Shown here in pieces: positions 11,851 to 40,780 of a DNA stretch of 64,000 nt. Both the position numbers and the translations under genes were made by a program. This DNA comes from Cyanophora paradoxa CCMP329 (Eukaryota; Plantae; Glaucophyta): contig QPMI01000603.1 of assembly GCA_004431415.1 (NCBI GenBank), positions 1-64,000 of the forward strand, written 5' to 3'. Every line of letters begins with the position of its first letter. Position 1 is the first letter of the stretch. The notes under the pieces were generated by a model. The model was not told the origin of the DNA, searched no databases, and saw only the letters and a program-made list of their open reading frames with translations.

Positions 11851-12160
11851 GCCAGGCTGAAACAACTGCAGCTGTTTTTCTCGCTTGCCTTTTCTTCCTA
11901 TAGCTACGAGGGCCCGGGGGACCGGCGGGGGTCCGACGGTCGACGAGTCCATATATACACGAGTTGATATACACATATATACACGAGGGCGCCGCCGGCA
12001 GTTGATATATACACGAGTGGGATCGCGCCGAGCTCCAGTGCCTCCTAAGAGCCCTTCTCCATTTTCCTGGGTATTTAAGCAGCGATCAGACCCCGAGGCA
12101 GTCAGTCAGGCAGCTTCTTCAAGTCGCCGAGCCTCGGAGTCGCCGGGTTCGTAGCGCGTC

Positions 12161-12988
12161 ACACATATGAATATTCATATTTTAATCCCTCGGCGTTCCG
12201 CCTCAGGATTAAAATATGAATATTCATATGTGTGATTCGATGTTATATCAATAAAATCGATTAATTTATTTGAATTTTCACATGAATTTTCATATTTTTA
12301 TATGCATTTTCAATTAATTTAATCGATGTTATATCGATAAACTCGATTAATCGATATTGTATCTTAATTGTAGTTAATCGGAATTATATCAATAACTTCG
12401 ATTGATCTTAATTGAATCCTAATTGAATCTAATCGGAATTATATCAATAAATTCGATTAAATCATGTTCTTTTCCGATTAAATCAATTAAATATTTAATT
12501 TTGTTACCATAAGTGGTCTAAGTTGACTCACTTTTCATAAACATTTTGAACTCTTAGTCTCCATGAATTTCTTAAGATGACTCAACTTAGTCAACTTAGT
12601 CAACTTTGTTACCATAATCAATCAGGGTGGACTCACTTTTAGATCAACTTTGAAATCTCAATCAAAATCAACTTATATTTCAAAAGTGGATCTTCTAAGT
12701 GGACTCAAAATGTTCACTTTGTGATACATGTTAGCTCAAATCCTTACTGTTTATGGTCAGGGTTGACTAAGTGGGGGGAGTTGACACATTTTTTGAAATC
12801 CTTTTTAGAAAACTTTAGGTCCCAAATATTTCCTGTGAAATTTGAGTCAACTCAACCCACTTAGTCAACCCTTGCATTGAATTCGTAACAAAATCCATAT
12901 ACTATTACTACTTTTACGATTAATATGAGTCAACCTTGAGTCCACTTAAATATAAATATAATATAATAGGGGAATCAAGGGAGATGCT
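12161..12988 (+). repeat. Left TIR of outer PLV, with a 73-bp terminal hairpin and GTTGACT/AGTCAAC iteron-like motifs
   Basis: Reverse complement of 50190-51018, with roughly a dozen substitutions plus small indels. Hairpin arms are 12161-12188 and 12206-12233. Confidence 0.95.
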
Positions 12989-13580
12989 TACTAAATGCAG
13001 TGTTAGATTGATGATTTCACATATGTAATCACGATTATCTCTAAAGTAGATTTGGGTTGATTATTCGATGTTATCAGGTGATTGAGTTGATAAGTATTTG
13101 ATGTAGATCTTTAACTCTTTCGTTATAATCGAATTTAATCGAATTAGTTTTGAATTTTCAAAATCGGTTTAATCGTAATAGCGATGTATACACATCGAGA
13201 TTCGTAGATGTGATTGCAATTTATTGTTATGTATGATATTGGTGATTATATTGAATCGTTGGTGTATCGATTTGATAACTTCCTGGTGATCTGTATTAAA
13301 AACTCACGTTTAATGGATTTTAATCGAATTTAAAATCAAAATTCAAAATCGGTTTCATCGCGATTTGGAGTCACAGGTATCGAAAATCCTAGATGTGATA
13401 GTAGCGCTGTGACCGCCTTAAAATGCTCGATTTTATGACGTTTTAAGCGCATCGATTTGAGCATGTGGTGTTGAGATATCGTAGCAAACGTGAATAGTGA
13501 GTTTCTAGACGGGTACAGCATTAATCTAGAAAAAACCGCGTTTTTTTTTACTTTTCAAGTTTCACGGCGAACGAAGTAAA

Positions 13581-13879: not shown

Positions 13880-15265
13880 CTAGCTAGTTTTGGTCCTTTC
13901 TCTTAGTGTTCTCTGAGGTTTAGGGGCTGTATATGACTCCTTAGTAGTCTGAAAGTCATTATACCATCTCTGGCTATTAACCTCAGAAAGTTTCTGTGTC
14001 CCTGCTATAGTGAGCTTTTTGAGTTCCCTATTAACCTTGCCAGTCTTCTCCTTTCTAGCCTCTATCAAAGGCTTATCTGGGACTTCATTAGCAGCTTCTA
14101 TGCCTTCTCTCCTTATAGCAGCATCAACCTTGGCTTCCTCTTTGGCTTGCTCTAATGCATCCACTGTAGGTGTTTCCAGATACTCAACTGAATTCACAGG
14201 TAACAGCTCATGGAAAGCAAACCTGTTTTCTATGATCTCACCAGTGGGACTCCTTAGCTTAAACTTAAAGCCTTCCCTACTATCAACAGTGTAAACCATC
14301 CTAGACCAATTGTTACCCTGTTTAGCAAAGGGGTTCTTCTCAACTTTCACTCTAACAAACATGCCAGGCTGCATGGTATCAAGGTAAGCTATTGATTTCT
14401 TGAATCTTTCATCTTCTAATCCCACTATATACCTATAATGCTCCTCTGTAGTTTCGCCTGGCTTCATCTTAGTAGCTGAGTGAACTGTATTATTGTAATT
14501 ATACTCAATATCACCTAACACATCAAAGAATCTAGCTGTGTTATTAGCTATGCAATAGTTTGTGATCAGTCTCTTAATCTGCTTGTTAAAGGCTTCAATT
14601 CGACCTTGGCTTCTATGGTCAGCAGTTCCACTCACTTGGTGTTCTATGAATTTACTAGATAAATACTCCTGGAATATTCGATTTTGGAATTCACTCCCAG
14701 CATCTGATTGAACTTTTACTATGGGTCTTGCCACTCTCATTTCAAGCTGTTTAAATGCAGCTAATGTAGTGAGAGCTGATTTATCCCTTATAGGTATGAT
14801 ATACCCAGTTCTCAGTGTAGATTCCATTGCAGTCATAAAGGTATCATAGCCATTGTTTTGTTTCTTATAAGCTGGGAAAAAGAGCAAATCAATCACATAG
14901 GTATCAAGGGGTTGCCTAATTGGGACCATGGGATCTCTCTTCCTAGATATAGCAGGTGCATTGATCTGAACAACTTCTTGTTTTTTATAGAACTCTTGCA
15001 ACTGCTTATAGGATTCATCAGGTAACTCAGCCCTCATAGCTTGAAGCCCTTTGTAACCAGTTCTCACATCATAGAATCTCTTGGCAATCTTGCTGGTTTC
15101 TTTCACTGCAATAGCAACTGGGATCTCTACTGGGACAAGCTCTTTCATCTCTGACTTTTTTACAATTCGAGATTCTCCCTTTTCCTCCTTGGGAACTGTG
15201 ATAGGCAGTAGGTTACCTTGTAGTTGCTCAGTGGTTCTCCTAACTATTCTTCCAGTTGCTGGCAT
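13880..15265 (-). CDS. Retroviral-type (rve, DDE) integrase of outer PLV
   Basis: YVIDLLF, VQSDAGSEF, GRIEAFN triad; YNNTVHSATKMKP; WSRMVY SH3-like C-terminal region typical of Polinton integrases; consistent with the 6-bp TSD. Confidence 0.92.
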   Translation of the reverse strand: MPATGRIVRRTTEQLQGNLLPITVPKEEKGESRIVKKSEMKELVPVEIPVAIAVKETSKIAKRFYDVRTGYKGLQAMRAELPDESYKQLQEFYKKQEVVQINAPAISRKRDPMVPIRQPLDTYVIDLLFFPAYKKQNNGYDTFMTAMESTLRTGYIIPIRDKSALTTLAAFKQLEMRVARPIVKVQSDAGSEFQNRIFQEYLSSKFIEHQVSGTADHRSQGRIEAFNKQIKRLITNYCIANNTARFFDVLGDIEYNYNNTVHSATKMKPGETTEEHYRYIVGLEDERFKKSIAYLDTMQPGMFVRVKVEKNPFAKQGNNWSRMVYTVDSREGFKFKLRSPTGEIIENRFAFHELLPVNSVEYLETPTVDALEQAKEEAKVDAAIRREGIEAANEVPDKPLIEARKEKTGKVNRELKKLTIAGTQKLSEVNSQRWYNDFQTTKESYTAPKPQRTLRERTKTS

Positions 15266-15268: not shown

Positions 15269-18200
15269 TTAATTAAAAGGAACAGAATTAATACCATCTG
15301 GTAAGATGTATCTCTTTGCATCAAAGCAGTTTAGGGCAACCCTTCTACTCACAGTGTCTATTATTGTGTGATCTGCCCTTCTTTTCTGCTTTGCAGTCAC
15401 AGTCTTGCTGATACCTGCAAATAAACACTGTTTAAAATCATTAAATTGGAGTTCCTCAGTTGAAGTCCCAGAGAGCTTACTCCTCTCAATCTCAGCAGTT
15501 CTGAAACTGTAAACTTTAGCTCTCAGACCCACATACTCCAATATAGCAGAGCCAGGCATTTCATTTTTGTATTTACCTGGGGTCATTCTGGAATCACCTC
15601 CAAGGTCTAATGCATAGGATATATTCTCTATATCTTTTGTAGGGTCTTAGATTCGATATATAGACAAAAGGAGTCAGTATCATGGAATAGTAACTTTGCT
15701 TTTGTCCATTGGGACCTTACAGTATCATAGAAGAACTTGTAGTTATGCAGTTTGGCTGCATCCAGAACATAAGCCCCAATAGCAACTGGCTTATCTAGCT
15801 TCACATGCTTTGTGTAAAACTCAAAGGCAACTGCTTTTTCGTTTATGGGACTTGTTGATTTCACCAATGGGGAGGCTGCATATTTCATAAACAGTTTCTC
15901 ACTGTTTGCAATCTTAACCACAGATCTACCTCTGCAAGATTCAATGCATTTCCCATAGATTGAGTTATTCATGAGTTTATAGAAATCAGCCTCGAATTTA
16001 TTCACTGCTTTCCTTCTCATCTCAGTATTCAGCTCAATGTAGGGTTTCATTACAGGAGCCACAGTAAATGATAGGACCCTGTGAACCTTCTTTAGTTTCA
16101 CCCCTTTGTCCAACAGATACTGTAGAAGAGGCTCAGAAATCACATAGTTGGTCACAGAACCAAAGGTTGCAGTTAGCTTAGGGGTCTTATCAAGCTCTTC
16201 TCCTGAGAGATCTAATAGGCTCTTTTGATATTGTGATAATTCTGCATATTCTACTATTTTCTTGTTAATAATTAGGGGAAATCACTGTGGTCTAGATATA
16301 GCCTAATTGGGTAATCCAGATCAACTTCCAGGAAACTGGATCTGTTATCTTGTGGGTTGAATTCGGTCTCCCATCTAAAATCACCAACTGGGATTGGCTG
16401 ACTCAAACAGTAGCCATACAAGTTGTTAGCATCAAACAGCATTATATGGGAGTTCTCACCATCAGCCTCAGCATACCTACAAGGCATTGTTGCAAAGCCA
16501 CCCCTGATTCCCCTCTCAACAAATTCGTATTGCTCTACATCACTTATAAGCTCTATTTTTGCCTTGGTGGTCCTAAGCATAGCATCCCAAGATAACCCAG
16601 GTGCAGATACATAATGAACTGGGTCCAATCCATATACTGAGTGTGAAAGCCTTCTGAAAGCCTGGAATTTGCTCATTAACTCATCTACATCAGCAGCCCC
16701 AAAGTCCATAAAATTACTTGCATCAATGAACTTGTAAAGACCCCATTGCAATGAAAGGTATTGATCAAAGTTTTTCGAAAGGATTTCGATTCGCTTTTTA
16801 TCACCCATGCCTGCTATTTTTCTGAAAATGAATGTCCCACAGTCATCCATTTGGTCAACAACCACTGCTACTTTTGTTTGCTTTGAGATTCTCCTATGGA
16901 GATTGCAGTTTCTGCATGCAGGTGCAATGTAATTACCTGTGTGGTGATCATGATCCCTGCATTTGAAGTTTTCCTTGGTGAACCTCTCACTGCAAAGGTA
17001 ACAGTGTTTGGTAGCTCTGTAAATAGCCTTTTGCTCATCTGTGAGTTCATTCATGGGAATATTGGTGAACAGGAAATCGATTAGCTCTCTTGCTTTGGAC
17101 TCCAAGCATTCAAACAGACCTCCCATTGGATCCTGACCCTCAAATCGAAACTCCTGAACATCTGCCCCAGTGACTATTCTAATGTTGACTGCTGAGACTT
17201 CCCTCTTGGATTTCGATGCATCAATGGGGATGCTTCTATGTTCAATCTTGCAGTAAACCACAACAGGAAGCCAGACAGTTTTCCTGAGGTTTTTCAGTCC
17301 AAACTCTATTGTGGTGTCAGGCTTAGGGGTGATTCCCTTTGAGAGTCTCCAATCAATGCATCTGTTTGAGTCCACATGAGCAGTGAGTTTAGCCTCAGAC
17401 CTGAATCGAGATAAGCATGTGTCACAGTAGTGTAACTTTTGATCATTGTATGTTTCATGGTTTACTTTCAATAGCCTTGAAAGGGACATGATTGTAATAT
17501 AGTGACCATTCCCTTCATCATCTTGGATCAGCATGAGATTAACCTTATGCTTTCTGCCTGGGTTACTGGATTGATGCAGGGGATAAATAACCTCTCCATC
17601 GATTCCAAATATATTAATGCTAATGCCTGCATTTTGAGCCTCGAATTTATCAATAATATCAGCATCACAGGCAACAGGGAATGGGATGTTATCGAAATTG
17701 AGAGCCAGCGGATTATAAGCGATTGCTGAGTATTTCCATTTGCGATATTGTGAAAGCTCATTCCTCTTATGGGAGTTTATCGCTTTTCTGTGAATATATG
17801 CCAAAATTGCATTTTCGAAGCAGGAATCATCAATATTTCGAATATTCACAGTGGCTCTCTTCCTAGCAATCCACTCTGGGGTTTGTAGAAAGCATCCACC
17901 AGTTGGAGCATAACTCATAATAGCCACTCTGAGTATTTCGATTCTTTCCAAGCGATAGCTATCAACCACATTCATCTGCTCTTGACACATTTGGGCTGCT
18001 TTATTCAGCTCAGTTCGAATATTTCTCGACCTGGTTAATACAAAATAATCACTGTAAATGTATTTCGATATCCAAACCTGCGGATTGCTGACTTTTACGA
18101 ACTTGCAGATAAAAGACAAGCGAACCTTGATTGCCCTGAATTGATCTAAACCCTGCTTTAATCGATTAGGAAGGGATGTAGCAATTCTGTCCAGGAATTC

Positions 18201-18512
18201 AATCACATCTACAACAACTTCCCTTCTGGCTCTGTAAGTGAGCCAGCGATATAATTCATTCATGGCTGTTCCATCTTCTGCCTCAGGTTCTATTTGCCTT
18301 AGGCGATCCAGTTCATCCAAGGTTTCAATTTTATCATATAGGTTATTTGCTTTTCTGGTTAATCTGGCTAAAGTGGGTCTACCCTTTGCAATTAAATCTA
18401 TTTCCCGGTCATATTCAGCCTCTGTAATTTCATGGGCTGCATAAAGTGTTCCCAGCAATCCCATGAGTTCCCATTTCTTCTCCCTTATGAGTTTGTTGGT
18501 AATTCGGGGCAT
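15269..18512 (-). CDS. polB: Protein-primed family B DNA polymerase of outer PLV (three frameshifted pieces: 16272-18512, 15628-16155, 15269-15586); exonuclease domain degenerate
   Basis: RGIRGG, DANNLYG, KLMNNSIYGK, HDTDS and KVY motifs; N-terminal Zn-finger and EndoVII-like CxxC..RDHDHHTG..CxxCN; collinear with the intact PolB at 35399-39367. Confidence 0.92.
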
Positions 18513-18573
18513 TATTCCTAACTTGTTCCTATTCTAAGGGGATATTTTATTTTAGAGCATTTTAAACGCATTT

Positions 18574-18924
18574 TCAAAATATTTTAATGGATCCATTGGC
18601 TTCCTCTGAATGGAATCGCAAAAACCTATTAATCCTAAATCGGGATTTCGGTTTTTGTAAATTGACTATCCAAGGTTCAAAGAGATACATGTAATATGCT
18701 TCTCTGTTCATTAGGTCTTCATGCCCACCCTTCTTACTTGAGTACAGGACTGAGAACTTCACATCAGAAGCCTTGCATAGGTCTGCTGTAGATGGCATTT
18801 GACCTGATTTGTGTTGTCGCCATCTTTTTTGTAGTGGCTGTGAGGTTCTCCCTATGTAGAGTTTGTTCATTTCCTCACTTTCAATCATATAGATTGATCC
18901 AGAATCATGATCTGTTCCAGTCAT
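18574..18924 (-). CDS. GIY-YIG endonuclease
   Basis: SIYMI..LYIGRT..LQKRWRQH..E..N motif pattern. Confidence 0.85.
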   Translation of the reverse strand: MTGTDHDSGSIYMIESEEMNKLYIGRTSQPLQKRWRQHKSGQMPSTADLCKASDVKFSVLYSSKKGGHEDLMNREAYYMYLFEPWIVNLQKPKSRFRINRFLRFHSEEANGSIKIF

Positions 18925-18975
18925 TTCGAACTACTAACATATAAATATATTTTTCTATCTCTTAAATCATTTTTT

Positions 18976-19157
18976 GGTTGACTTAGTGGGTGGAGTTGAG
19001 GCACTTTTTATTTCTTTTTATGGCAGAGTCCTCTCTTAGAATCTGTGAAAAAATGAGTCAACTCCCCCCACTTAGTCAACCTAATCGATTAACACACCAA
19101 AAATAAAAGACTGTTTGGGTCTTTTATGATAAATTTGAGTCAACCATGAGTCCACTT
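18976..19157. promoter_or_regulatory. Internal copy of TIR inverted-repeat motifs (candidate origin / protein-binding site)
   Basis: GGTTGACTTAGTGGG (18976)..CCCACTTAGTCAACC (19067)..GAGTCAACCATGAGTCCACTT (19137) match 12761, 12856 and 12927 in the TIR with similar spacing. Confidence 0.6.
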
Positions 19158-19167
19158 TTGAGTAAAC

Positions 19168-21759
19168 CTAAACTTCAACATCAGAATCATAATCTGATGC
19201 ATCAGGATCAGCAGCAGGTAGGTCTTGTTTCATCCTTGGATTAGCTTCTTCCTCAATAGTTTCATCATCTACAAGCTTCATCTTTCTGAATTCCTCAAAT
19301 ACTTGTGGGAATAGGAAATGATAGTATTGCTTACCATTTGTAGTTTTCACTTGGATATATGTCACACTTCTCATTTCAGTATAATACCTGCGACTATTAT
19401 AATCGTTTTTATATTTATTGCTGGTAATGAACTCCTGGAACCATTTCCAGGTTTCCACAAGGCTACCAGACTTGCATTTATTCTCGGAAATTAAGCCTCG
19501 ATCCACAAGCCACTTAGTGAACATAAGGATGATTGGAGCGCACACCTGTTGGGCTAAATAGTATTTATTTGTAAGGGTCTATCAGCAATCCAGTTCACAT
19601 CCTCACAGTCAACTTTGGTTCTCAAATAGTGGGCAATGTTTCGAATATTGCAGTGATCATTTAGCCATTTTACAAGTGGAAGGAAGTATGACCTATCCTT
19701 TGCGAATTTCTTACTAACTTCAACAACCACAAATCGCCTATCTCCAGCTTCAATTTTCACTGGAATGTTGTTATTGCTGGTGAATATAATCCTGGCAAAG
19801 TTGCTTTTTGTGTATGAATCTATCCCTTTGTGTTCAATTACAATCTTATCAGAAGTTATGAGATCTTTGAGCATATCATTATTTTCGAATGTGTCCTTGC
19901 CTGAGGCTTCATTCACAACAATCAAGATCTTATCCTCTCTATTGTGGGCAAATCGACCAAACAGATCCTCTTTTGGCTTTCCAGTTGCATAACTCAGGGC
20001 ATCTCCAAGTATCTTCTTTTGGAAAGTATCAACCAACACATTCTTACCAGTTCCCTGTTCACCAATGAAGATTAAGGATACTCCATTGAGTTCCCCAGGC
20101 TTTTGCAGCATGTGGGCAAACCATTTCAACAGATATTCATAGGTATTTTGATCCTCACCAGACATTAAGAACAAGTGATCTAGGAAAGGCTTAATCATCT
20201 CAGCAGTTACATCCTCTGGAGCATTTTCGAATTGCTGATGGTCAACCTTCATTCCTGGATAGAGGTTGAATACAGATTTGCATTTCGCACTGAGAGTAGC
20301 AGGAGGTGGGAGGAAATCCATGTAAGTTGATCTTGTGGCTGTTGGATCCACAATCCATTTTCTAAATGATTGCTCCCATTTCTCTTTCTCATTATCTGTC
20401 CCCTCATTCACAATCACCTTATGCATCAAATGGGGGAAATGCTTTGTAGAGAGCTTCCCAATATCTTTGGGCATCCAGCAAAGTAGTTGTTCATCCCAGA
20501 GCATCACACAACCAACATTTTCAACATGATGCATTCGAGCATTGAAATACCTCTTATGCACATTGTAATGTTCAGCCAAAGGAGGGATACTTGCAGTCTT
20601 GTAATCGATTTCATCTGTGTCCTCTGGTAGGAATGCATACTTTTTGGGGAAGAGTTCCTTGAAAAGCTCATTGTTATCTTTGCTCAACCAATAAACCAAG
20701 GATTTGAAGGTCAACACTTTGCCAGGCTCAGCCTTCTTCTTGCTTCTGCGAAGCTGTGTAAACTTCTCCTGGCATTCATCATAATCATACTTGTCACTCT
20801 GTTCTGAGAATTGGTGGAAGAGTTCAGCTTGCATTTTAGGGGTGAACTTGTTGTCTTCCCCAACATTGATGATGACCAGTCCTACATCAATCCAAGTTTT
20901 ATACTCATTAGCTCTCTCACCATTCAGACCCATTATAACACTTTGTAGCAGTTCGAAAGTAACAGGATTTTCGGGTTCAGTGTCTTTTTCAGCTTCTACC
21001 TTCTCAGTCTTCACTTTATCACTTTTTGGCTCCTTTTTAACTGGTTTTGGCTCAAGGCTATAATTTGCGAATGCAGAAATATTCGATTCATCCACAAGTT
21101 TAGTAGAAGCTGAGAAGAAAGATACAAAGAAGTCCTCATTTCGCATTAACACTTTGTCACAGTCAACGAATTTCTTAAAGCAAACGTTTTTATCAACATC
21201 TTTCTTTGATTTATTTTGAGCATCCAGAGTCTCACCTTTGCAGCAATTGAGGCAGATAAGGTTCTGTGTGGAGCTGTAAACTCCACTGTCATAATCCTCA
21301 TTTTTCACCAATCCCATAGCTTTGAAAAGCTTGGGATATCTTCATGTTTGCATGCAAGCGATTTAATGATAAAGTGGGCTGAGATCTTGAACTTGGTGAC
21401 ATCCTCCTTGATCAAATAAACCCTTCTATGGCGAACTGCAACAGCAATATCGTTAATCGAAGTGGTCCAGATCGCTTCCATAGCTTATCTCTCATCTCTC
21501 TTACAACAGTTTCCGCCTCAGCATAGTTTTCAGCAATGTTCTCCTTCAAATCAGCGAATTTATCCAGGTCCAGGTAAACTCTGGTGACTTGTTCAGGCTG
21601 AATGCATTCAGCCCAGGTCTTAACCTTGCTATTATCAATGGCTTCAAGGGCATCTTCAGCAGAATCAAATACATGGGTGACCTTGTTGCGATCACCAATG
21701 AGAGTACTAAGGAATGTAGCATTTTCAACAGGGGTGGCGAATTTCTCGATTTTGTTCAT
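19168..21759 (-). CDS. Primase (AEP-like)-PriCT-2-superfamily 3 (D5-like) helicase, frameshifted (21412-21759, 19554-21317, 19168-19545)
   Basis: RVYLDLD at the N-terminus; YKTWIDVGLVI..FHQFSEQSDKYD (PriCT-2-like); Walker A GEQGTGKN, VNEA, IFTSNN, DRRF. Confidence 0.85.
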
Positions 21760-22702: not shown

Positions 22703-23018
22703 TTATATTCCCAGAGAAAACGTTTTCTGCTGGCAGAGAACTTCTCCTTGGATACTCCTGCTGCTCATATGTATACTCTGTGGGGTCTGCTGGCATTGAC
22801 TCCACAGAAACTGTTGATCTCCTTCTCTCTCTTGCTTCTGAGGCATTATCCTCATTATCTGACATCTCAAACTCCACTCTTGTCTCACAGCATCCACTGT
22901 GGCAATTGCTCACCACATGCAGACTGAACATCTCGAAAAACTTTCGTATTATATCCATGTCTCTAATAAAACAGATAAAATTAAAGCCAAACTCGTCTTT
23001 TATATACTGTTGGGGCAA
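22686..23018 (-). CDS. Hypothetical viral protein (start may be ~22959)
   Basis: ORF fills the gap in a co-oriented gene run; no motif recognised. Confidence 0.35.
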   Translation of the reverse strand: MPQQYIKDEFGFNFICFIRDMDIIRKFFEMFSLHVVSNCHSGCCETRVEFEMSDNEDNASEARERRRSTVSVESMPADPTEYTYEQQEYPRRSSLPAENVFSGNINGGHY

Positions 23019-24126
23019 CTCCCTTTTCTACTTCAGCTTTAGTGGCACCAGGTTCAATGGTTCCCTTTTGGGTCTTTGTTTTCATTTCATCTACTGCTTG
23101 CTCATCGATTTGGTTCTCTTTCTTAGCAATAAACTGTTTATCTGGGACACCAGTAATGCCCATTTTATAAACTTCCTTTCGAAGCATCTCCTTGAGCTTG
23201 GCTCTCTCTTTCTTCTCAGTAACATACTGCTCTAAGGCACTGGATTTGGCTTCCAGATCTTTGAGTTTAGCAGTCATCTCATCCCATTGAGCCTTGGGAA
23301 TTCGATGAACATTCTGAGTGGGAGCAGTCTTGTATGTGACTTCACCAGCCATAGACTGGATTACCTTGTCTGATTCCTTACTAAGACCTTCACCTTTGCG
23401 AGCCAGTGATAGATCTTGCAAGCCTAAACCTTTATCATCAGCAGCACCAATAATTCGCCTGGCACCCTCAGCAACAGCTTTCATTTTTGAGGCTTCTGGT
23501 GAGATGTTTCTGTATTTAACTGAGTAGCCAGCAGAGGACCAAACGATATACTGATAGGAGTGGACATATTCTTCAAACATTTTGTAAAAGTCCTCCTTGT
23601 TTCGCATTATATTGTATTCTTCCTCTATGGCTTCAAGTTCTTTGCGATTAGCAGCACTCAGGAAAACAGCATAATCAGAATTAACTCGAATAGTGGAAGA
23701 GACTTTTCTGAGTTTCTGTGTAATGCAGATAATGGATATTTTCGAATGTCTGCCCCTACTGTACAGAGATGACACCACCTTGTCTCTGGTTAAATCAATT
23801 ATCTCATTATCAATTAAATCATCTAAAACAACACACATGTGGTTGACAGGTTCACCTTTTTCGATTTTCTCCTGCCTTTCATCCAAAAGCTTTGAAATAT
23901 AACCAGCATCCCATTTACCAAGTTCTACTGTTGCCACCTCTGTCCAAAAATGATTGAAGCTGGTCCCACTCACAACTAGGACAACATCAACTACTTTGGC
24001 ATCATGTAATTGCTTTAACCAATACTTTACACATTCGCTTTTTCCCGTACAACTTTTGCCTATAAAAATGGCTCTGAAAACACCTTTTATCATTTCAGAA
24101 ACATTAAACTCTTCTAAATCTTGCAT
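22981..24126 (-). CDS. A32/FtsK-HerA-like genome packaging ATPase with charged C-terminal extension
   Basis: Walker A GKSCTGKS, Walker B VVLDD, RGRHSKISI..Q..IRVN; ATG chosen at 24126 (MQDLEEF). Confidence 0.9.
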   Translation of the reverse strand: MQDLEEFNVSEMIKGVFRAIFIGKSCTGKSECVKYWLKQLHDAKVVDVVLVVSGTSFNHFWTEVATVELGKWDAGYISKLLDERQEKIEKGEPVNHMCVVLDDLIDNEIIDLTRDKVVSSLYSRGRHSKISIICITQKLRKVSSTIRVNSDYAVFLSAANRKELEAIEEEYNIMRNKEDFYKMFEEYVHSYQYIVWSSAGYSVKYRNISPEASKMKAVAEGARRIIGAADDKGLGLQDLSLARKGEGLSKESDKVIQSMAGEVTYKTAPTQNVHRIPKAQWDEMTAKLKDLEAKSSALEQYVTEKKERAKLKEMLRKEVYKMGITGVPDKQFIAKKENQIDEQAVDEMKTKTQKGTIEPGATKAEVEKGVAPTVYKRRVWL

Positions 24127-24190
24127 TGTTGTAGATCTTCCTAAATAAAGACAGATAAAAATAATGCAGGGTGACTGAATATGGTCAGAT

Positions 24191-25561
24191 CTAAAGATTA
24201 ATTCTACGAAGACCTGAGCCATCTATAATGAGGAAACTATGCATGAGAGCGCGAACATTAACATCGATTACCTTATCTGAAGGCATGTAGAGGGTGAGGA
24301 ATGAAGATGAGGAATTTGTCAGGTCAACAAATCCACTTTGAGCGATATTTCGAATTGCCTTCTCTCCATCAATGCAGAAACTCATACCCGAAAGGACATA
24401 TTTATCTGCAACCTTGTCCATGTTAGAGCATTTGAAGGCATCAGCAATAAGCTCAGCACCTTTGAGTAGGGAAATTGGCTCAGTGGCATAAAGTCGCTGT
24501 CCATTAATTTCAACAGTGAAAGTAATATCTTTGGAGTTGGCATAGGTCTTAAGAACACTGTGGGAGCCATTGGATTTGTCAACAGTTTCATGATCACGAA
24601 CTGAAACAAGCAGAGCATATACAAGACCTGAGATTTGAGAGAGGTTAATTCGATTGGGTTGGGCATTGCCCTTGGCAGAGAAAGCACTAGCATCTACAAA
24701 TCCAATATCAAGGGAGGGAATAGCCATGCCAGTAGTCTTTACTTTTTCAATTACAGTAGCAAAAAGCTCATCAGAAACATTAATAGCATGCATGTAAAGG
24801 CGAGGAGAAGTAATAGAAATGACAGGGGTTGTTGCACCAAGAGTAAAGTCTGTGATGTTTTGACCAACATTTGCCAGAACAGTTTCAGCAGGGGCAGTTC
24901 CAAGACCATCATCTTTTGAATAATCTACATCAGCTGCTGCAACAGTAAGACCACGACCACCATAGGAAGTTTCAACATAACCCTTTCCAGCATCCTTAAA
25001 CCAAACAGTAACAACCATTTCACCAGATAAAGCACCAAGGGGAAGGTAGTGATTTAGCCAAGGCACAGGGATTTCAACAAAGAATGAGCCACCAAGGCGG
25101 TTGGTTCCATGAGCAGGAATGCCATGAACCATGCCCATTGATCGCTTCTTTTTAGCTAGTTGATCCTCCGAATAATAGACCAGGGGGAAATGCGCAAGGA
25201 AATCAGAGGGAATATGATAGGTGTAAGATCCATAGGTAATTTCAAGTCGCTGAACTAAAGCACCAACTGGGCGAGTGTATCCATTACGAACTAGGTCAGT
25301 GTCACCAGCAAAAGTGATGGCTGGAAGGTCGAAAGCAAGTTCGAGTTTTCCACAGAAATTGTAGCGAGGTAGCTTGAAGGAAATGCGATTTCCAACATTA
25401 TTCTCAAAAGTATTGCTGGGATTCACAACAACTAGAACTGGCTTAGACTTGGATTCGAGACCAAGCATAAGGGAGTTATCCAGGAAAAAGGCTTTCGCCT
25501 CCTCTGGGGTTGTTAGGGCTTCTTTCAGCGAAAGTCTTTGAAGAGTGGAAGTGATATCCAT
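24191..25561 (-). CDS. Major capsid protein (double jelly-roll, inferred) of outer PLV
   Basis: ~456 aa, between the ATPase and the mCPs; FKLPRYNF..LELAFDLP, IPVPW..YLPLGAL; visibly homologous to 31647-32873 (GFVDLTNSSSS vs GYQDFFNSSSS). Confidence 0.8.
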   Translation of the reverse strand: MDITSTLQRLSLKEALTTPEEAKAFFLDNSLMLGLESKSKPVLVVVNPSNTFENNVGNRISFKLPRYNFCGKLELAFDLPAITFAGDTDLVRNGYTRPVGALVQRLEITYGSYTYHIPSDFLAHFPLVYYSEDQLAKKKRSMGMVHGIPAHGTNRLGGSFFVEIPVPWLNHYLPLGALSGEMVVTVWFKDAGKGYVETSYGGRGLTVAAADVDYSKDDGLGTAPAETVLANVGQNITDFTLGATTPVISITSPRLYMHAINVSDELFATVIEKVKTTGMAIPSLDIGFVDASAFSAKGNAQPNRINLSQISGLVYALLVSVRDHETVDKSNGSHSVLKTYANSKDITFTVEINGQRLYATEPISLLKGAELIADAFKCSNMDKVADKYVLSGMSFCIDGEKAIRNIAQSGFVDLTNSSSSFLTLYMPSDKVIDVNVRALMHSFLIIDGSGLRRINL

Positions 25562-26654: not shown

Positions 26655-27585
26655 ATGAATCGACTTGTTAATATTGATAGCAGGGATAGAAGCCAAGGAC
26701 AAAATGAAAACTCTTACAGGGTCACCCTCACAACTCCAGTAGAGAGACCAAGGGAATGCAGGGTTCTATATGCAGAGATTCCAAACAGTATCTATAACAG
26801 TGTGGGGACTGATCATTTAACAGTTGATTTTAACTACCAAGATGGTTCATATAACCAAGTGATCACACAACAAGTGTATCCCCTTCCCAGTGGCTACATC
26901 AATCAGGGTCATTTTGGGGTCACACACCCTTATAATTATGGGCTGAACTATTCAAGCTTCCAAACTATTGCAGGCAAAACAGTAGCTTTTGAGTTCAAGA
27001 TATTCTACAACCCAACAACCTATAAAGTGGAGTTTTACAGTAACCATGAGTTTCGTTTTATTGCAAGCAACCAGAGAATAGGAAAGCTTTTGGGTGTAAG
27101 TTCTACTGAATACACTAATGGGTATTATAGCACTCCTCCTGTTGGTGGATCTCCATATCGACCTGAGAACCTTTTAAAGTATGATGGCAAACCTATTACA
27201 CCTGATCACCCAGCATGGGGAATCACCTTCTCAGGACCCAGACTCTCCTCTAAGCCCTTGCAATATTATTTTGACAGCAGGAAGATGTCTGATATGAATG
27301 CTGAGCAGTATCTGTACATGCATATTAAAGAGCTGTCCCCTTTGCCAGCAGACACAATATAATTCCAAAATCGCAACCACAAAACCAGGGAGCTATCCTT
27401 AGATTGCAATTGAGTAAAGATATAGGGGCTATGTTTACCATAGTGGTGAACATGCAGAATTTATTCAAATCAATGACAGAAACCTGGTGATAAGGGAACT
27501 CACTGTGGAGTTTAAAGATTACTTTGGTGAACTGATTGATATGAATGGAATCGATAATTCTTTTCAGTTGGAGTTTATCGAATAA
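26655..27585 (+). CDS. Minor capsid (penton-like) protein 2, frameshifted near 27350-27480
   Basis: LVNIDSRDR..YRVTL..AEIPNS; C-terminus LTVEFKDYFGELIDMNGIDNSFQLEFIE* continues in another frame to 27585. Confidence 0.72.
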
Positions 27586-29109
27586 AGGCACCTGTAAAGT
27601 CAACTCTCATTGTGGGAGCATTCACATACACAAGGGGATAAATGCGAATATATCTTATTCTCAGAGAATAACCTATGTAAAAAGCATCCTTGATGCTGAG
27701 AGGGAACCCACTCAATAGAGCCACATCACCAGAGTTGTGAGCATTGTTAATGTTCTCACAGACATATATTTTGTTTTGCCCATCTGATCGAATAAAAGAC
27801 CAGTTGATCCCATCAGTGGATGTTGCCACATTGAAAGTCTTAATAAAAGCATTGGTGTCCCCTGATCCATAGGCAATCACAGAGGAGAGTTCAAAAGTAT
27901 ATGGAAAAGCAACTTGAAGGTATTCAGTGGGGTTTTCCCATATCTGTTCAGGAGCATAGGCTCCAGCTTCCCAGCCAAATGCTGAAGGTCTAGCCATGAA
28001 AGGCTCTTTACCTGTCACAGAGGATGAGGCAGTAAAGGCATCATCTGCAAGCTGATACCAATTGGCATCCAAAGGAGGTGATGTAGTGAGAGTGGATGAA
28101 ATGTAAGCCTTTGAAGGGTTCTTCAGTTCATAGTTTGCTACTAGTAGGCTGCAAAGCTTATTAATCATATCATTGTTTGCTGCTATGTAGGTTTCAGTGA
28201 ATGCAAGCATGTCTGGGATTTTAGAAGTGTCATCCAGGGAGCTTACTATATGATTTGGAAGTGGGACTGATAGCCTATAGTATCTCCCATAATCCTGATC
28301 ATAGTTGTAGGGTAACAACTCCTCCATCTTATCAAGGGCAGAAAGCTCACTTGCAGCCATGAGCATGTTAATCAATGGGCTTCCATCTGTTGAGGCAATC
28401 CATGAGAGAATGCCCCAGCTGTTCACAGTCTCATAAGCATAACCCACATAATCAGACTCTAAATGTGGGTCCACCTCTCCACAAGAGATGCTTATTACTA
28501 TAATATCATCATCATCACTGTAAATCTTCTTTGCATGGCTGTAACCACACACACTGGGATTATTGTTTCCCGAAATGGCACCATCAATGAGACAGACAAA
28601 TACTCCCCGATTGAAATCAACAATGCTTACAGGAGAGAAATATGTAGGAGCAGCAGAGGTAGCCCTAGCAGCAATCTTACAAGGCAGAAAGCTGTAATTG
28701 TTATCATTTGTGATAAATATTGGTTTCATATTCTGAGTATCAAAGGATGTGATCACAATGTCCTTTAGGGAATCCTGTATTAGTGATTCCCCAGTAACTG
28801 AATTGATTGCAGTCTCCAAGGGTCCCACATCATACTTTGTGTTAAATAGGGCATTTTCAATGATATTTCGAGGATTTGCGAAAATCAAAGGCAGTTGAGT
28901 TAGGTAAATATTGTGTAAATCGTTTGCTGTCAGTTTAGGTTCACCTGGTCTATCAGGATGCCTTATATTCAAACCTATTGCAATGATCCCACCAGTGGAA
29001 GTTCCACTCACAAGATCCACAAGATCGATTATTCTCCTGCCAGTTCGATTTTCGATTTCTTTTAGCAGCCTGGTTATGATAATGCCCCTTGCACCCCCGC
29101 CAGAAAGAC
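27575..29109 (-). pseudogene. Patatin-like phospholipase fused to a C-terminal F5/8 type C (discoidin) domain; separated from its first codons by the nested PLV
   Basis: GGGARG, GTSTG and DGA patatin motifs; EYLQV..F..STDG.NW..IRYIRIYP..MRVDFTG discoidin pattern; native start lies at 41144. Confidence 0.88.
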
Positions 29110-29445
29110 AAAAAATGGTGTTTTGGGCGTTCTGCCCCACGACACCATTTATCGTCTCATATTTCACAAAATCTCAAAAATCCTTACCATAAGCCTATCT
29201 ATCGATTAATTTCACACGATATCCACACGATACACCACGATATCCGCACGATATCCACACGATAAACAGCAATACCACACGATATCCAAACGATAAACCA
29301 CGATATCCACACGATTACACACGATATCTCTCGATTGTCGTACTTTAATCGAAAAATATCCCACAAAAACTAATTACCATAAACCAAAATTTCAATTACC
29401 TGTATTCACCACATCGAATTCGTTTTAAACATATAAAGATTTATC
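29110..29445 (+). repeat. Left TIR of inner PLV, with terminal hairpin and tandem CACGATA(T/A) repeats
   Basis: Reverse complement of 40781-41116; AAATGGTGT..ACACCATTT hairpin; ~10 ACGAT-core repeats at 29214-29328. Confidence 0.95.
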
Positions 29446-29500
29446 GACAGACAAAAAATGACGTCCTTAAATTTAAAAAACGTTTTACTGAGTATCCACA

Positions 29501-29929
29501 ATGACAACCGAAACGTTTTCTGAATGCTATTTCGGGAATAATTACGATGATGAATCTTTCGGAATAATCAATAGTGTCTATAAAGGACTAAAAGAGTATA
29601 AAGGTGTTACACAGGAAATGATACATAAATGTTTCTTGTCTAACAGACTCGATGAATTAATCCATAAGAAAAACAAATATTTTTCTTGTCTTTCATACCA
29701 GAGGTTCAAAGCGAAGGGATTAGTTATTGGAAAAACACATGAAAAAGAAGTATCCGATAAATTCGAAATACTCGATGATAATCATTGTGCATACTGTAAA
29801 CATAATAACTTTGGTAAAAATATGTTACGCTCACCAGATTGTTGTGTTTGCTATAAAGTAATATGCAAGAACTGTGCTTATTTAGCCAAAGATGGTGTTT
29901 ATGAAGAAGTTCACACAAACTGTCGCTAA
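29501..29929 (+). CDS. Hypothetical protein with C-terminal Cys-rich Zn-finger-like region
   Basis: CAYC..CCVC..CKNC..HTNC; preceded by CAAAAAATGACG. Confidence 0.65.
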   Translation: MTTETFSECYFGNNYDDESFGIINSVYKGLKEYKGVTQEMIHKCFLSNRLDELIHKKNKYFSCLSYQRFKAKGLVIGKTHEKEVSDKFEILDDNHCAYCKHNNFGKNMLRSPDCCVCYKVICKNCAYLAKDGVYEEVHTNCR

Positions 29930-29978
29930 ACCGAGCAAAAAATGACGCCCCGCAAAAACAAAACCACAACCTGTAACC

Positions 29979-30266
29979 ATGGCGATTACAAAAGAATATT
30001 TCGCGAATCATTTGGGATTTTACGTTAATCCTGATTTATCGGAAGAAGAACGCATAAAAGCAATAACAGATAAGGTGTTTACCGATACAACCGGGTGTAA
30101 TCTTTCGAAGGTTTCAAGTTCAGCAAGAAAAGCAATTAGAAAAGCAAACGAAACCTACATACAACCATCGTATAATGAAACTATCAATTTAGCAGAAGCC
30201 CGACATGATCGTAATTTAATGAAATTGAAGTTAAGAAAGAAGCTTGAAGCTCGCAAGAACCAGTAA
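29979..30266 (+). CDS. Hypothetical protein
   Basis: ATG ORF preceded by the CAAAAAATGACG motif. Confidence 0.55.
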   Translation: MAITKEYFANHLGFYVNPDLSEEERIKAITDKVFTDTTGCNLSKVSSSARKAIRKANETYIQPSYNETINLAEARHDRNLMKLKLRKKLEARKNQ

Positions 30267-30319
30267 AAAACACGCATTAAAAATTGATTACCTTTTTTAG
30301 AACTTAACAAATCTTACAA

Positions 30320-30799
30320 ATGGAACAAATCATTTATTTCGGGAATACCACACAAGAACCACCAAACTATTATGGTTGTTATCTGTTGCTCGTAACACCA
30401 TTTAACATTGAAAGAGCGGGATATAGAAACATTTTTGAGTTCAGAGATTGTGGAGCAAAATATGATGAAGATATTAAGTATTGGTATGTTACATATAAAA
30501 ATCATCGACTTCTTAAAAGGTTCCCAGTTGTTGACCCAGTAGAAGTTGACCCTGATTTTCATAATCACATAATGACCCTGAAGTTTCGTAAATATTTCGT
30601 TGGTGATATCAAGGTAAGATTACCAGAGTTCGAAGAAAAACGTATATTTACCCAGGCATCATTGCGTAAATACCTTAAAAAACAAGGCTCTTTATTTGAT
30701 AAGCGACACCGTTTATGGTATGTCACCGATCCTGAAAGTGAGATATGCAAGATCTTTAAAATGTTTGATTGTGAACATCTAACATCTCTACGTCGTTAA
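30320..30799 (+). CDS. Protein with two degenerate DUF5710-like repeats
   Basis: GAKYDEDIKYWYV and GSLFDKRHRLWYV resemble the GARWD..W repeats of 40422-40760. Confidence 0.55.
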   Translation: MEQIIYFGNTTQEPPNYYGCYLLLVTPFNIERAGYRNIFEFRDCGAKYDEDIKYWYVTYKNHRLLKRFPVVDPVEVDPDFHNHIMTLKFRKYFVGDIKVRLPEFEEKRIFTQASLRKYLKKQGSLFDKRHRLWYVTDPESEICKIFKMFDCEHLTSLRR

Positions 30800-31548
30800 A
30801 CCGTAATAGTCGTGGGTTCATTACTAATTCTTATTGATTCTCTCTTTTTTATCGCTCGTCTCTTTACAAACTTGCGAAACGCTTTCATGTCATCATCTGT
30901 TATAATTGCACGGTCTGTGTATACTTTGATGTCATAACCTTGTAACCCAGTTATAACGGTCTGATAATTGTAACCCCAAAGTCTATGTAGTTCTTTATAA
31001 GTCTTTTTATCTAATCCACCGTTATATTCATCGAATGCGCAGTTAAACTCTTTCTCATTTCCTAAGATGTTAAAGAATACCACAAATTCCACATTACGAC
31101 GAATGGTAGTAGAAATAGAACATATACGTTGGACATTGAAAATAACGGTTATACCATAATGTCTTCCGCTCGTTACCAGTTTGGATAACACAGCCGAATT
31201 ATGCATATCCAAATTAGATCCAATCATGTCATCTAAAATTATTACCAAACTATTACGCTTCTCATTGTTTTCGATTCGTTTCTTTTGCATACTAATTAGT
31301 TTCACTACCACATTATCATCCCATTCCTCATAGATGTTACCAGGATGAGTTATATCTTTGAATTGACCGGTAAACGCAGTGGAACTAAATACTACAATCT
31401 GATCGATCTTATCGCGCAGTTCATAAAGTAGATATTTACAATACGTTGTCTTACCAGAATTGGAGCGCCCGGCAAGCAAAAAACGCGAAGGTAATTTAGC
31501 AGTTTTAACCGGGTCGAATTCGGGAATATCATCTAAATCTATATCCAT
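30796..31548 (-). CDS. Packaging ATPase of inner PLV
   Basis: GRSNSGKT, IILDD, SGRHYGI..Q..IRRN. Confidence 0.92.
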   Translation of the reverse strand: MDIDLDDIPEFDPVKTAKLPSRFLLAGRSNSGKTTYCKYLLYELRDKIDQIVVFSSTAFTGQFKDITHPGNIYEEWDDNVVVKLISMQKKRIENNEKRNSLVIILDDMIGSNLDMHNSAVLSKLVTSGRHYGITVIFNVQRICSISTTIRRNVEFVVFFNILGNEKEFNCAFDEYNGGLDKKTYKELHRLWGYNYQTVITGLQGYDIKVYTDRAIITDDDMKAFRKFVKRRAIKKRESIRISNEPTTITV

Positions 31549-31646
31549 TACTGTGTGTCCGTTACAGTAATAAGATAAAAAACAAAATCACACGCTAACC
31601 TATACGCGATTCGCAGGCTTCCTACTTTAAAGAAAGAAAAAGAACT

Positions 31647-32873
31647 TTAAAAGTTGGAAACTTTCAGTGTCGAAATGTTATAGCCATTGAGAACCATGAC
31701 ATTGTGACGGAGCGCGTAAATATCCACCTGAACCGGCGCCTCATCGGTGCAACCAGAAACTACAAGATCCATGTAAGAACTTGAAGAATTGAAGAAGTCT
31801 TGATAACCCATGACCGAATTATGGAGAGAATCCTTACCGCTCTTGCTTAGGACAACACCATAAACACATCCATCCTCAAAACCAAGATCAGAATTGCCCA
31901 CAGTGCATCCCTTGTAGTGAGACGGGATATGGTTTACAGCAGACAGGAAACCGCCAATAGGTTTGTTTGAGATTTCAAGCGATCGGTTGTTATGGAAAAT
32001 TTGGAACTGTTCAATTTTCACATTGGAATAGTAACCAGAAAGAGTCGAATGTGTGTATTTATCAAGCTCATTGGTTTCACGAACAGTCATAAGAATTGAA
32101 TGAACCAGACCGGAAACACTCGCAAGTGTAACCTCGACATTTTGCCCATCATCCGCCGCTTTAAGCGCTCGGGTCTTCTTGTGGATCACTTCCGTAATCG
32201 GGATGCGAATACCTCCTTGTTCATTCGCCGTCTTTAAGAGGTTCTCAGCTTCCGCAGAAGCAATATTAACGAATTGACAGATTAGCGCGCAATCACCCAT
32301 AGTGACATTTCCACCAGCAGGAACCAAAACTACTGAATTCTCGCGAAAATCTACCTCGATAGTGGGCATGTCCGCAAGAACGCAAAGGGGGAAATATGCA
32401 TCATCCCAGAATTGGGCAGGAATCTTAATGATATATTCCGTAGATTCGTCAGTGCTAAGGCGACTAATTTCACGGAAATATCCAAGAGAAGCGCGCATAG
32501 TAGCCATGGTTGCTGTGTCATTGTCTACCAGAGCATTAACAGTGATCCAATCACCAGGGATGATATACTTAAACCCACCATGGACAAAACGAACCTCTTT
32601 AATGTAAGAAGCGCCACCATTGGGAAGAGTGCAAGCAACACCACCACCGGTAGTAACCTTAAAGTAAAGCGAAACGCCACTTAGTAGTTGCTTGCGTGGT
32701 AGATCAAAATAAGCGGTCGTTTTGAAACCGAAAGTGTTACCACGTGGGCGAACCTGTTCAAGGAACGGCTTATACTTGGGGTTGGTTCCGATTTGAAGAC
32801 CGGGAGATAGATAAATTTGATCCGATCCGGGAGTAACGAGGAGTTCCTTTAAAGTTGTCCCAGCAAGCGACAT
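31647..32873 (-). CDS. Major capsid protein of inner PLV
   Basis: 408 aa next to the ATPase and mCP; YFDLPRKQLLSGVSLYF, YFPLCVL; homologous to 24191-25561. Confidence 0.8.
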   Translation of the reverse strand: MSLAGTTLKELLVTPGSDQIYLSPGLQIGTNPKYKPFLEQVRPRGNTFGFKTTAYFDLPRKQLLSGVSLYFKVTTGGGVACTLPNGGASYIKEVRFVHGGFKYIIPGDWITVNALVDNDTATMATMRASLGYFREISRLSTDESTEYIIKIPAQFWDDAYFPLCVLADMPTIEVDFRENSVVLVPAGGNVTMGDCALICQFVNIASAEAENLLKTANEQGGIRIPITEVIHKKTRALKAADDGQNVEVTLASVSGLVHSILMTVRETNELDKYTHSTLSGYYSNVKIEQFQIFHNNRSLEISNKPIGGFLSAVNHIPSHYKGCTVGNSDLGFEDGCVYGVVLSKSGKDSLHNSVMGYQDFFNSSSSYMDLVVSGCTDEAPVQVDIYALRHNVMVLNGYNISTLKVSNF

Positions 32874-32925
32874 GTCTTATGTTTAAAATACGAAAAGAAA
32901 TTTTTAAATTACATTATTAAACAGA

Positions 32926-33831
32926 ATGACGCGTTACTATCTTAATATTGATTCCCGGGATCGGGATGATGGAACCCCTACAAACTATTCTTATAAACTT
33001 CCCCATCCAATCCAAAATGTTAAAGCATGCCGTGTTACCAATTTCGAAATGTTTAATAACATTTACAATCTAAGCGAAAATGGAGCGCTTGTAACATCCA
33101 CACTCGATGGACAAGGAGTAACCAAAACGAAAAACAACGTGATTTCGAAAGGGACTTACACAGCGGATAGTTTGGTGAATTATCTAAATGCTCTTCTGAT
33201 ATCTCAGGTCTACGGTGCAGCAGGGACTACATACACCCGTCATTTCAATGTGTCTTATGATCCAATAACAATGAAACTAAGGATTATTGGTGAAGTAGCA
33301 TTTACCATACGTTTCGGTAGCATGATTTTAGCCAATTTCCTCGGTTTCCCGGATCCATCACTAAATGGCTCGGCGGGTGTAGGTTATCCATCTACTCCTC
33401 TCGATTCACCGCAGCAAGTAGGTGCTTATACTTATAATCACTATCTCGACAGTGTCATACCGCTCGACCTTTTGTTTAATTCTTACATCCTTCTACATGT
33501 CGATCCACTCAAAGGTAATTACGTAAGCAAGAATACCAGCGACGATAAAGCGTTAGCTAAAATTGAAATTGACCAGACGGTAGGTAGTCTCCTAAAATAC
33601 GATTCTACCAATAACTCTATGATCATCCATGAGCAAAACGGATTAGTGGAAGTTGAGACGCTTAAAGTGCGTTTGACGTATTGGAATGGTAACGAAACGG
33701 ACATTACCACGGATTGGTCAATGACTCTCGAACTGATCACCGAAGATGAAAAGGATCTTACAAAAGCGGCATTGAAAAACGTTATAAGGGATTTGGAAAA
33801 TGTCTATTTACCGTTTGGTCGTAATATGTAA
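32926..33831 (+). CDS. Minor capsid (penton-like) protein of inner PLV
   Basis: YLNIDSRDR..NYSYKLPHPIQNV..FNN; C-terminal LKVRLTYWNG..DWSMTLEL. Confidence 0.78.
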   Translation: MTRYYLNIDSRDRDDGTPTNYSYKLPHPIQNVKACRVTNFEMFNNIYNLSENGALVTSTLDGQGVTKTKNNVISKGTYTADSLVNYLNALLISQVYGAAGTTYTRHFNVSYDPITMKLRIIGEVAFTIRFGSMILANFLGFPDPSLNGSAGVGYPSTPLDSPQQVGAYTYNHYLDSVIPLDLLFNSYILLHVDPLKGNYVSKNTSDDKALAKIEIDQTVGSLLKYDSTNNSMIIHEQNGLVEVETLKVRLTYWNGNETDITTDWSMTLELITEDEKDLTKAALKNVIRDLENVYLPFGRNM

Positions 33832-33863
33832 TTTTGTATAATAAATTTGTTTCTTTAATTCAA

Positions 33864-34610: not shown

Positions 34611-34943
34611 GGATCATTCTTACGTTAAAAATTTCTTTTCAAAGAATAGCGTTAAACATCCATCTCCGAATTTTAGCGCTCACGTTTACTTATTTTTATA
34701 AGTGGCGTTGTAGAGAAGTTGTGATATCCATGTATCACGCTTTTTAATCACCTGTTCTACGGGGTTCAATCGTAGAATCGAGGAAGCGAAGACTTTCGGC
34801 TTATTTTTCCGGCATCTTCTTATTATCGATGCGCAAAAAATGACGGTGGGCAAAAAATGACGATGTTCTAAGAAAACGTATAACCGACAAGAAAAAGGAC
34901 TTAAAGATTTCTTGCTATATATTAGAAGAGGAACAGCAAGAGA

Positions 34944-39367: not shown

Positions 39368-39375
39368 ATATATAA

Positions 39376-40760: not shown

Positions 40761-40780
40761 GTTTTTTTACAAAAAGTTAA

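Follow-up and report, generated by a model that had tools for sequence, protein, structure and literature searches.

A short motif at the apex of the terminal hairpins of two nested polinton-like viruses in Cyanophora paradoxa

Introduction

The terminal hairpins of parvoviruses and AAV have a fold-back tip, a small apical stem and a three-base loop. When hairpin priming is followed by terminal resolution, an asymmetric loop becomes inverted. In Halocafeteria seosinensis, terminal palindromes have been described for endogenous virophage subtypes 1, 2, 5 and 6 and for subtype 4 of the polinton-like viruses (PLVs); the same preprint already covers palindromes beside the target duplication, viruses nested inside others and a model of hairpin priming (bioRxiv 10.64898/2026.07.28.741278). 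The ends of Polinton/Maverick elements are of the 5'-(AGT)2, (AG)3 and (AC)3A types (PMC8097293), and such tip repeats serve jump-back priming by protein-primed polymerases (PMC5175343, PMC8097293). In the adenovirus ITR origin, a core at 9-18 is bound by pTP-polymerase and an NF-I site is located at 25-38 (PMC2794291).

Here, we describe the ends of two nested PLVs in a stretch of 64,000 nucleotides from the glaucophyte Cyanophora paradoxa CCMP329 (assembly GCA_004431415.1, contig QPMI01000603.1, positions 1 to 64,000), hereafter called the window. As in the Halocafeteria elements, going by the preprint, a palindrome lies inside the TIR beside the target duplication, an rve integrase is encoded and one virus is nested in another; the role of the hairpin is a proposal there. 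Palindromes in Halocafeteria are found mainly with non-pPolB replicases, whereas the inner virus of the window carries a hairpin and has an intact pPolB. Furthermore, the stems differ here while the apex is shared, and no inversion was found. The main text of the preprint contains neither a shared loop or apex motif nor loop orientation, and its supplements may list palindromes. With Polintons/Mavericks, the two viruses have in common TIRs, a 6-bp duplication, pPolB together with an rve integrase and a tip repeat, and the ACACA of the outer tip resembles the AC type. They differ in having no AGTAGT tip, no protease among 28 ORFs scanned and a capsid of a rare family. The part of the Polinton/Maverick account considered here (PMC8097293) describes neither an internal 11-nt box nor terminal hairpins.

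The likeness to adenovirus consists of a box that is short and conserved and lies 10-40 nt inward of a protein-primed end, and a tip repeat is present here. However, the motif does not match the sequence of the adenovirus core as published, its distance to the tip varies and the viruses described here integrate. NF-I sites have a dyad spacing like that of GGC-N5-GCC, and NF-I is an animal protein. All three features of parvovirus and AAV ends named above recur at the locus, but no Rep/HUH gene and no flip-flop were found, and the viruses are double-stranded with a pPolB. A literature search returned no report of an apex motif common to different families, nor of a loop-orientation test; papers retrieved with the exact 11-mer were, judging by their titles, unrelated.

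Results

Two related polinton-like viruses, one inside the other

An AT-rich block (30-43% GC) is embedded in the GC-rich host DNA of the window, and two nested elements were delimited there by their inverted repeats (Table 1). Both elements are polinton-like viruses. TIRs combined with target duplications of 5-6 bp are a trait of PLVs; here, TIRs of 830 and 336 bp and two 6-bp duplications were found. Replicase and integrase, a further PLV trait, are encoded by both viruses, as is an A32 packaging ATPase (Pox_A32, E 1e-11 and 3e-14). The putative capsid proteins, candidates for the double jelly-roll major capsid protein of PLVs, have no Pfam match; they are mutual homologues of 408 and 456 aa that adjoin the ATPase. 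These capsid-like proteins (24191-25561 and 31647-32873) belong to a rare family with 8 relatives among 1.84 billion representatives, the nearest relative carrying the label Cyanophora paradoxa in EukProt, which points to a glaucophyte alga as the probable host. A word-indexed protein search gave no match to the inner capsid protein.

Table 1. Positions of the viruses, their genes and their terminal elements in the window
Feature	Positions	Strand	Remarks
Outer polinton-like virus	12161-51018		38.9 kb; delimited by inverted repeats
Inner polinton-like virus	29110-41116		12.0 kb, nested in outer virus; delimited by inverted repeats
Outer left TIR	12161-12990	+	~830 bp; partner ~50190-51018
Inner left TIR	29110-29445	+	336 bp; 100% to 40781-41116
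Outer target-site duplication CGCGTC	12155-12160		second copy 51019-51024
Inner target-site duplication AAAGAC	29104-29109		second copy 41117-41122; within outer patatin-discoidin gene
Outer left terminal palindrome	12161-12233	+	28-bp perfect stem, 17-nt loop, flush with tip
Outer right terminal palindrome	50946-51018	-	identical, loop orientation the same; motif 50977-50987
Outer apex motif GGCGTTCCGCC	12192-12202	+	31 nt inside outer left tip
Inner left terminal hairpin	29113-29150	+	9-bp stem, internal loop, 4-bp apical stem; three unpaired A at tip
Inner right terminal hairpin	41076-41113	-	motif at 41090-41100
Inner apex motif GGCGTTCTGCC	29126-29136	+	16 nt inside inner left tip
Shared TIR word TTACCATAA	12504-12512	+	also 12609, 29184, 29374 (twice per virus)
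Shared TIR word ATCGATTAATTT	12256-12267	+	also 29201
Outer rve integrase	13880-15265	-	Pfam E 2.6e-4, below Pfam cut-off
Outer polymerase homologue, Endonuclease_7 domain	15269-18512	-	three frames; exonuclease part worn
Outer primase-helicase (PriCT_2 + DUF5906)	19554-21759	-	first part in other frames
Outer A32 ATPase and putative major capsid protein	22981-25561	-	ATPase 22981-24222; capsid protein 24191-25561
Inner A32 ATPase and putative major capsid protein	30796-32873	-	ATPase 30796-31548; capsid protein 31647-32873
Inner polymerase	35399-39367	+	DNA_pol_B_2 with Endonuclease_7 domain; single open frame, 1322 aa
Inner rve-type integrase	39375-40435	+	first part in other frames in this assembly

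With regard to the association of palindromes with non-pPolB replicases, the outer virus has a primase-helicase and a worn pPolB, the inner virus an intact pPolB only. In the outer polymerase, the exonuclease motifs are worn, a gap spans ~90 residues and the reading frame is interrupted, and the ends of the outer virus are intact. This worn homologue lies beside an AEP-like primase with PriCT_2 and an SF3-like helicase (15269-21759, reverse strand). A replacement of the replicase is possibly under way in the outer virus. The frame breaks in the outer polymerase, the inner integrase and the outer primase may be assembly errors.

The outer virus additionally encodes a GIY-YIG nuclease, and further genes of this virus code for a 1014-aa fibre-like protein with a Peptidase_S74 chaperone domain (44145-47189, forward strand) and for an S-adenosylmethionine decarboxylase (49557-49955, forward strand). 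The inner virus is inserted a few codons into the outer patatin-discoidin gene (27575-41144, reverse strand). Patatin-discoidin fusions have been mentioned for glaucophyte or rhizarian PLVs, and a limited term search of the supplements of that study found no terminal sequences for this host (PMC12220804). In a Pfam scan of 28 ORFs, a selection that leaves out ~30 shorter or overlapping ones, neither a maturation protease family nor an HUH/Rep nickase family was detected. No Rfam family matched within 12000-51200. At 54858-63955, a GC-rich fold-back was found, the ~2.7-kb arms of which enclose 40-bp repeats and a 346-bp unit repeated 9.6 times in tandem.

According to the initial annotation, the inner terminus was otherwise unrelated to the outer one. 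This turned out to be wrong: capsid protein (24% identity, E 1e-21), integrase (23%, E 4e-12) and polymerase (26-36%) of the two viruses are homologous, and the TIRs share further words. Both polymerases fall into one clade with five database proteins (FastTree 0.973; SH-aLRT 99.7). The two TIRs have 11 9-mers in common, compared to 2.9 expected (6/1000 shuffles), and this excess is inflated by AT-rich repeats, because 8 are also shared on the opposite strand. Since the viruses are related, the shared motif requires no helper relation, and common descent accounts for it more simply than helper use.

The ends fold into hairpins that are centred on one motif

The hairpins and their motif are a real feature of the window. 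As had been annotated, the ends of both viruses are hairpins with a common apex motif: GGCGTTCYGCC occurs without mismatch exactly four times in the window, once at each virus end, and the stems are centred on it (stem and motif centre at 12197 and 12197 in the outer end, at 29131.5 and 29131 in the inner end). With one mismatch, one match was found in the window, located in GC-rich host DNA. The 28-bp perfect stem of the outer terminus does hold the palindrome that had been noticed in it, which spans 16 nt (12165-12180). Its 17-nt loop can be written as CTC-GGCGTTCCGCC-TCA and contains a 4-bp stem with a TTC loop. The shorter hairpin described for the inner terminus, with the apex motif at its top, was likewise found: the 9-bp stem is perfect (arms 29113-29121 and 29142-29150) and is followed by an internal loop and by a 4-bp apical stem, GGGC/GCCC around GTTCT. 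The best folds at the apex differ in register, with a 3-nt loop in the outer and a 5-nt loop in the inner end. Around the motif, the likeness between outer and inner ends reaches 15 of 20 letters. Short repeats are located at the tips themselves, ACACA in the outer and AAAAAA in the inner virus.

When folded, both tips performed better than their controls. The outer tip reaches -29.5 kcal/mol (z -14), a value found in 0/200 shuffles, and the inner tip reaches -11.2 kcal/mol (z -4.1), with 0/1575 interior 46-nt windows folding as well. The outer stem, flush with the tip, exceeds the length of at least 20 bp that characterizes Halocafeteria-type palindromes in TIRs beside a duplication, whereas the 9-bp inner stem would fail the 20-bp palindrome filter of the Halocafeteria preprint. 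A fold-back artefact of the assembly was rejected, because short-read contigs reproduce the outer hairpin without differences and also the inner apex. The inner apex also has an 11-nt match ahead of the start of the inner polymerase (35387), no more than expected by chance.

The overall probability that the shared apex motif arose by chance is ~0.001-0.04, depending on the null model. A 10/11 match anywhere in the two tips was observed in 36 of 1000 shuffles, and a 15/20 match between them in 7 of 1000. If two apical 4-bp mini-hairpins are taken as the null, the chance is 0.001-0.003 at 36-80% GC and 0.012 at 100% GC.

Copies of the ends in short-read contigs

The outer tip has a depth of ~2000-fold compared to 22 for the single-copy flank (run X1), corresponding to ~87 ends; the inner apex, at 69-fold, corresponds to 3-4 ends. 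Other insertion sites and flanks exist for the inner-virus family. The outer family also occurs with an empty site: contigs with the outer patatin-discoidin gene and no inner virus were present in all four runs examined. A sibling TIR family is represented by ~11 ends, roughly three times as many as the inner one, and agrees with 29130-29192 in 55 of 63 letters. Its 5' part differs, and in one contig (run X13) it reads AACT in place of GGCG; this commoner family appears to have changed the motif. Another variant of 29130-29192, from run X17, differs at 12 of 82 letters. In four runs, a single-copy contig agrees with the outer tip as far as 12196, where the TTC loop has its first T, and runs on into other DNA. 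This departure, a break or an insertion, is a weak hint of cuts at the apex.

Both outer ends in the window have one loop orientation. Among the ~87 outer ends no inverted-loop form was found, and inversion amounts to at most 13% and may be nil, an estimate from one run (X18), from contigs only and from 32 of the 346 pieces listed. Two 31-letter words of the inverted junction had depths of 20 and 7.5, compared to 50 and 50 for the normal junction (X18). The same two words occur in the window at 12160-12190 and 12159-12189, and ordinary flanks yield them as well.

A third carrier of the motif

We assembled 108 polymerase loci, namely 20 plus 8 new ones from IMG/VR and the best 80 of 548 from metagenomes. 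Removal of two duplicates left 106, in most of which true ends are absent. IMG/VR searches with the inner capsid or the inner polymerase alone found no relative, and the capsid and integrase alignments were too variable for an IMG/VR locus search. The 810 kb of the 106 loci contain 7 matches to the motif with one mismatch, of which only that of one contig (L070/L218) lies at an end. This 17-kb contig comes from another sample and encodes a polymerase, an integrase, an adenain-like protease and a capsid unrelated to those of the window. Its motif, GGGGTTCTGCC on the inward strand, agrees at 10 of 11 positions and lies 16 nt inside a step in GC content from ~50% to 20%. This offset is that of the inner virus, with the tip position being approximate, as it was set by eye from the GC step after the motif had been seen. 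The motif is continuous with a TIR, the inner 98 bp of which are confirmed at the other, shortened end; the left TIR is incomplete, hence no target duplication can be read. With 14 candidate tips, the probability that any of them shows such a match by chance is 0.002-0.004.

The L070/L218 end has no long stem and forms a 4-bp mini-hairpin only. Therefore, the recurring feature is the sequence and not the long stem, and the placement at a hairpin apex, expected for the TIRs of related PLVs in the initial annotation, does not hold as a general rule. Of 100 loci compared, its integrase takes first place in likeness to the outer integrase and second place in likeness to the inner one; of these loci, its polymerase, which carries the same Endonuclease_7 domain, takes third place in likeness to the inner polymerase. 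Because the capsid module is unrelated, the box goes with the end module. For the same reason, packaging, one of the roles initially proposed for the motif, is disfavoured and the least likely of them. Two quick trees placed L070 nearest to the polymerase clade of the window with weak support (0.654; 48.5). A position as sister of this clade was dropped, as a fuller tree (25 sequences; the outer polymerase and six others omitted) disagrees.

Thirteen other candidate tips were found via AGTAG starts or TIRs, some of them uncertain. In 2 of the 13, the best match within the tip, 7/11, lies at offset 16 (P ~0.003, post hoc). In L089 (732-760, reverse strand), an element with an AGTAGT tip carries GGGGTACCAGC at an offset of 16 nt from the tip, in agreement with the L218 motif in 8 of 11 letters. 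Hairpins near ends that do not contain the motif were seen in L105 (17-74, 27-bp stem), L072 (1-80) and at the 3' end of L087. The 6-letter core of the motif showed no enrichment at 189 contig ends (9 occurrences, 7 expected), and recurrences of the core at L074, L211 and L214 were rejected on this ground. Three IMG/VR pattern scans of 66, 43 and 61 loci yielded no additional carrier. In the first (66 loci) there was no long stem, the best arm score being 7.5 compared to 30.5 and 11.5, and in the second and third only the L070 contig was near window-like genes. Of the conserved cis signal at the ends that had been postulated, the part that stands is a match above chance in the window and a third carrier; on the other hand, 0/13 other candidate tips reach a 9/11 match.

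Discussion

Terminal hairpins are already known, and the apex box shared by the two viruses is probably real. The best reading is that of a lineage-restricted end box. From the sequences compared here, we see about an even chance that the motif is an inherited end-recognition box, recognized in each virus by the replication and integration proteins that it encodes itself and most likely used for protein-primed initiation. The protein-primed polymerase would be the most likely reader, at the time when copying starts at the tip, and protein priming by slide-back or jump-back would be possible on the tip repeats (A run; ACACA). In this view, the box would play the part of the conserved core of the adenovirus origin and could be read either as a short dyad (GGC-N5-GCC) or as a mini-hairpin, and the long stems would be lineage-specific additions that present or protect it. 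However, the worn, interrupted outer polymerase beside intact ends points to the integrase or the primase-helicase as the reader. A common end sequence has been proposed as the likely site of action of both pPolB and DDE integrase (bioRxiv 10.64898/2026.10.13.758929).

Several observations count against an inherited end box. Only three carriers are known, two of them from one genome, and their distances to the tip vary (31 nt in the outer virus, 16 nt in the inner virus and 16 nt in L070/L218 with its approximate tip), whereas the adenovirus core is fixed. The other candidate tips, the core counts and the pattern scans provided no further carrier. The motif does not demonstrably follow the polymerase tree, in which the placement of L070 is weak, and the sibling TIR family reads AACT for GGCG in the X13 contig.

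Next in rank, and unlikely in our estimation, is a signal for excision or integration. At the junction of virus and host, the palindrome would be extruded into a cruciform, whose apex would be recognized and whose base would be cut by the integrase or by the domain resembling endonuclease VII that is fused to the polymerase; extension over the nicked hairpin would then restore the end with its loop orientation unchanged. Cruciforms are a substrate of T4 endonuclease VII, and an Endonuclease_7 domain is present in both polymerases. It is also in line with such a signal that the outer stem ends exactly at the target duplication, that a single loop orientation was found, that the L070 integrase is among the closest to both window integrases and that the single-copy contig, present in all four runs, departs from the outer tip within the TTC loop. 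However, L070 has the motif and the same domain but no long stem, and Endonuclease_7 is common in these polymerases, whose ends are without the motif. A sequence search of the PDB gave no endonuclease VII match and only Hpy99I (E 0.34), and the three tips have no terminal letters in common that an integrase could use.

A chance likeness, with GC-rich mini-hairpins at both ends for structural reasons and letters that agree by accident, comes after this and seems rather improbable to us. The frequency of 10/11 matches in shuffled tips (3.6%) is compatible with it, self-complementarity dictates half of the motif, most related tips are without it, the sibling family seems to have altered it and the finding was selected after the fact. 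What argues against chance is that both stems are centred on the motif, for which the apex-aware null gives 0.001-0.012, and that an independent third carrier has it at the same offset (0.002-0.004).

Parvovirus-type self-priming, the model of the Halocafeteria preprint, would have the 3' end fold back and prime, with the apex as the site of a resolving protein. We regard it as a poor prospect. The outer 3' end does pair flush over 28 bp, and the outer virus, with its primase-helicase and worn polymerase, resembles palindrome-bearing non-pPolB elements (bioRxiv 10.64898/2026.07.28.741278). Against this, the inverted-type junction word has a depth of 7.5 versus 50 (X18) and is also produced by ordinary host flanks, three T are unpaired at the inner 3' end, and the HUH/Rep family is absent among the 28 ORFs scanned. 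It has to be considered that contigs drop rare variants and that asymmetric resolution or a single copy burst also leaves one orientation.

Very improbable, finally, is helper exploitation, in which the inner virus kept or copied the outer apex to use outer proteins, or the outer virus uses those of the inner one: motif and further TIR words are shared, the viruses are nested, the inner one has no primase-helicase and the outer one no intact polymerase frame, but the inner virus is not a satellite without own capsid or replication genes, the ~87 outer ends face 3-4 inner ones, empty sites and other inner flanks exist, a further carrier of the motif comes from a different sample and has a different capsid, and nesting of such viruses is common (bioRxiv 10.64898/2026.07.28.741278). 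The use of outer-virus proteins by the inner virus, as suggested in the initial annotation, is unsupported, since the inner virus has its own capsid, A32 ATPase, intact 1322-aa polymerase and integrase, and the outer polymerase is the worn one. If proteins are shared, the direction could be reversed, with the outer virus using the inner.

Returning to the inherited end box, its role might reach further than the three carriers. GG.GTTCYGCC could be the conserved origin or end box of a whole lineage of PLVs, travelling together with the polymerase-integrase module between capsid modules that are unrelated. It would be recognized in the form of a mini-hairpin and, at palindromic tips, would guide a cruciform cut by the endonuclease VII domain. 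We consider this improbable and place it between a chance likeness and hairpin self-priming. If true, a lineage-wide box combined with a cruciform cut would explain how a provirus leaves the chromosome without inversion of its ends, and such a box would let co-resident viruses share replication proteins. A short motif on ends that otherwise differ offers a well-defined target for assays of binding, initiation and cleavage, for which the locus provides two natural substrates and two sets of proteins. That many copies show one and the same loop orientation provides a first data point against the simple model of hairpin priming proposed for such ends.
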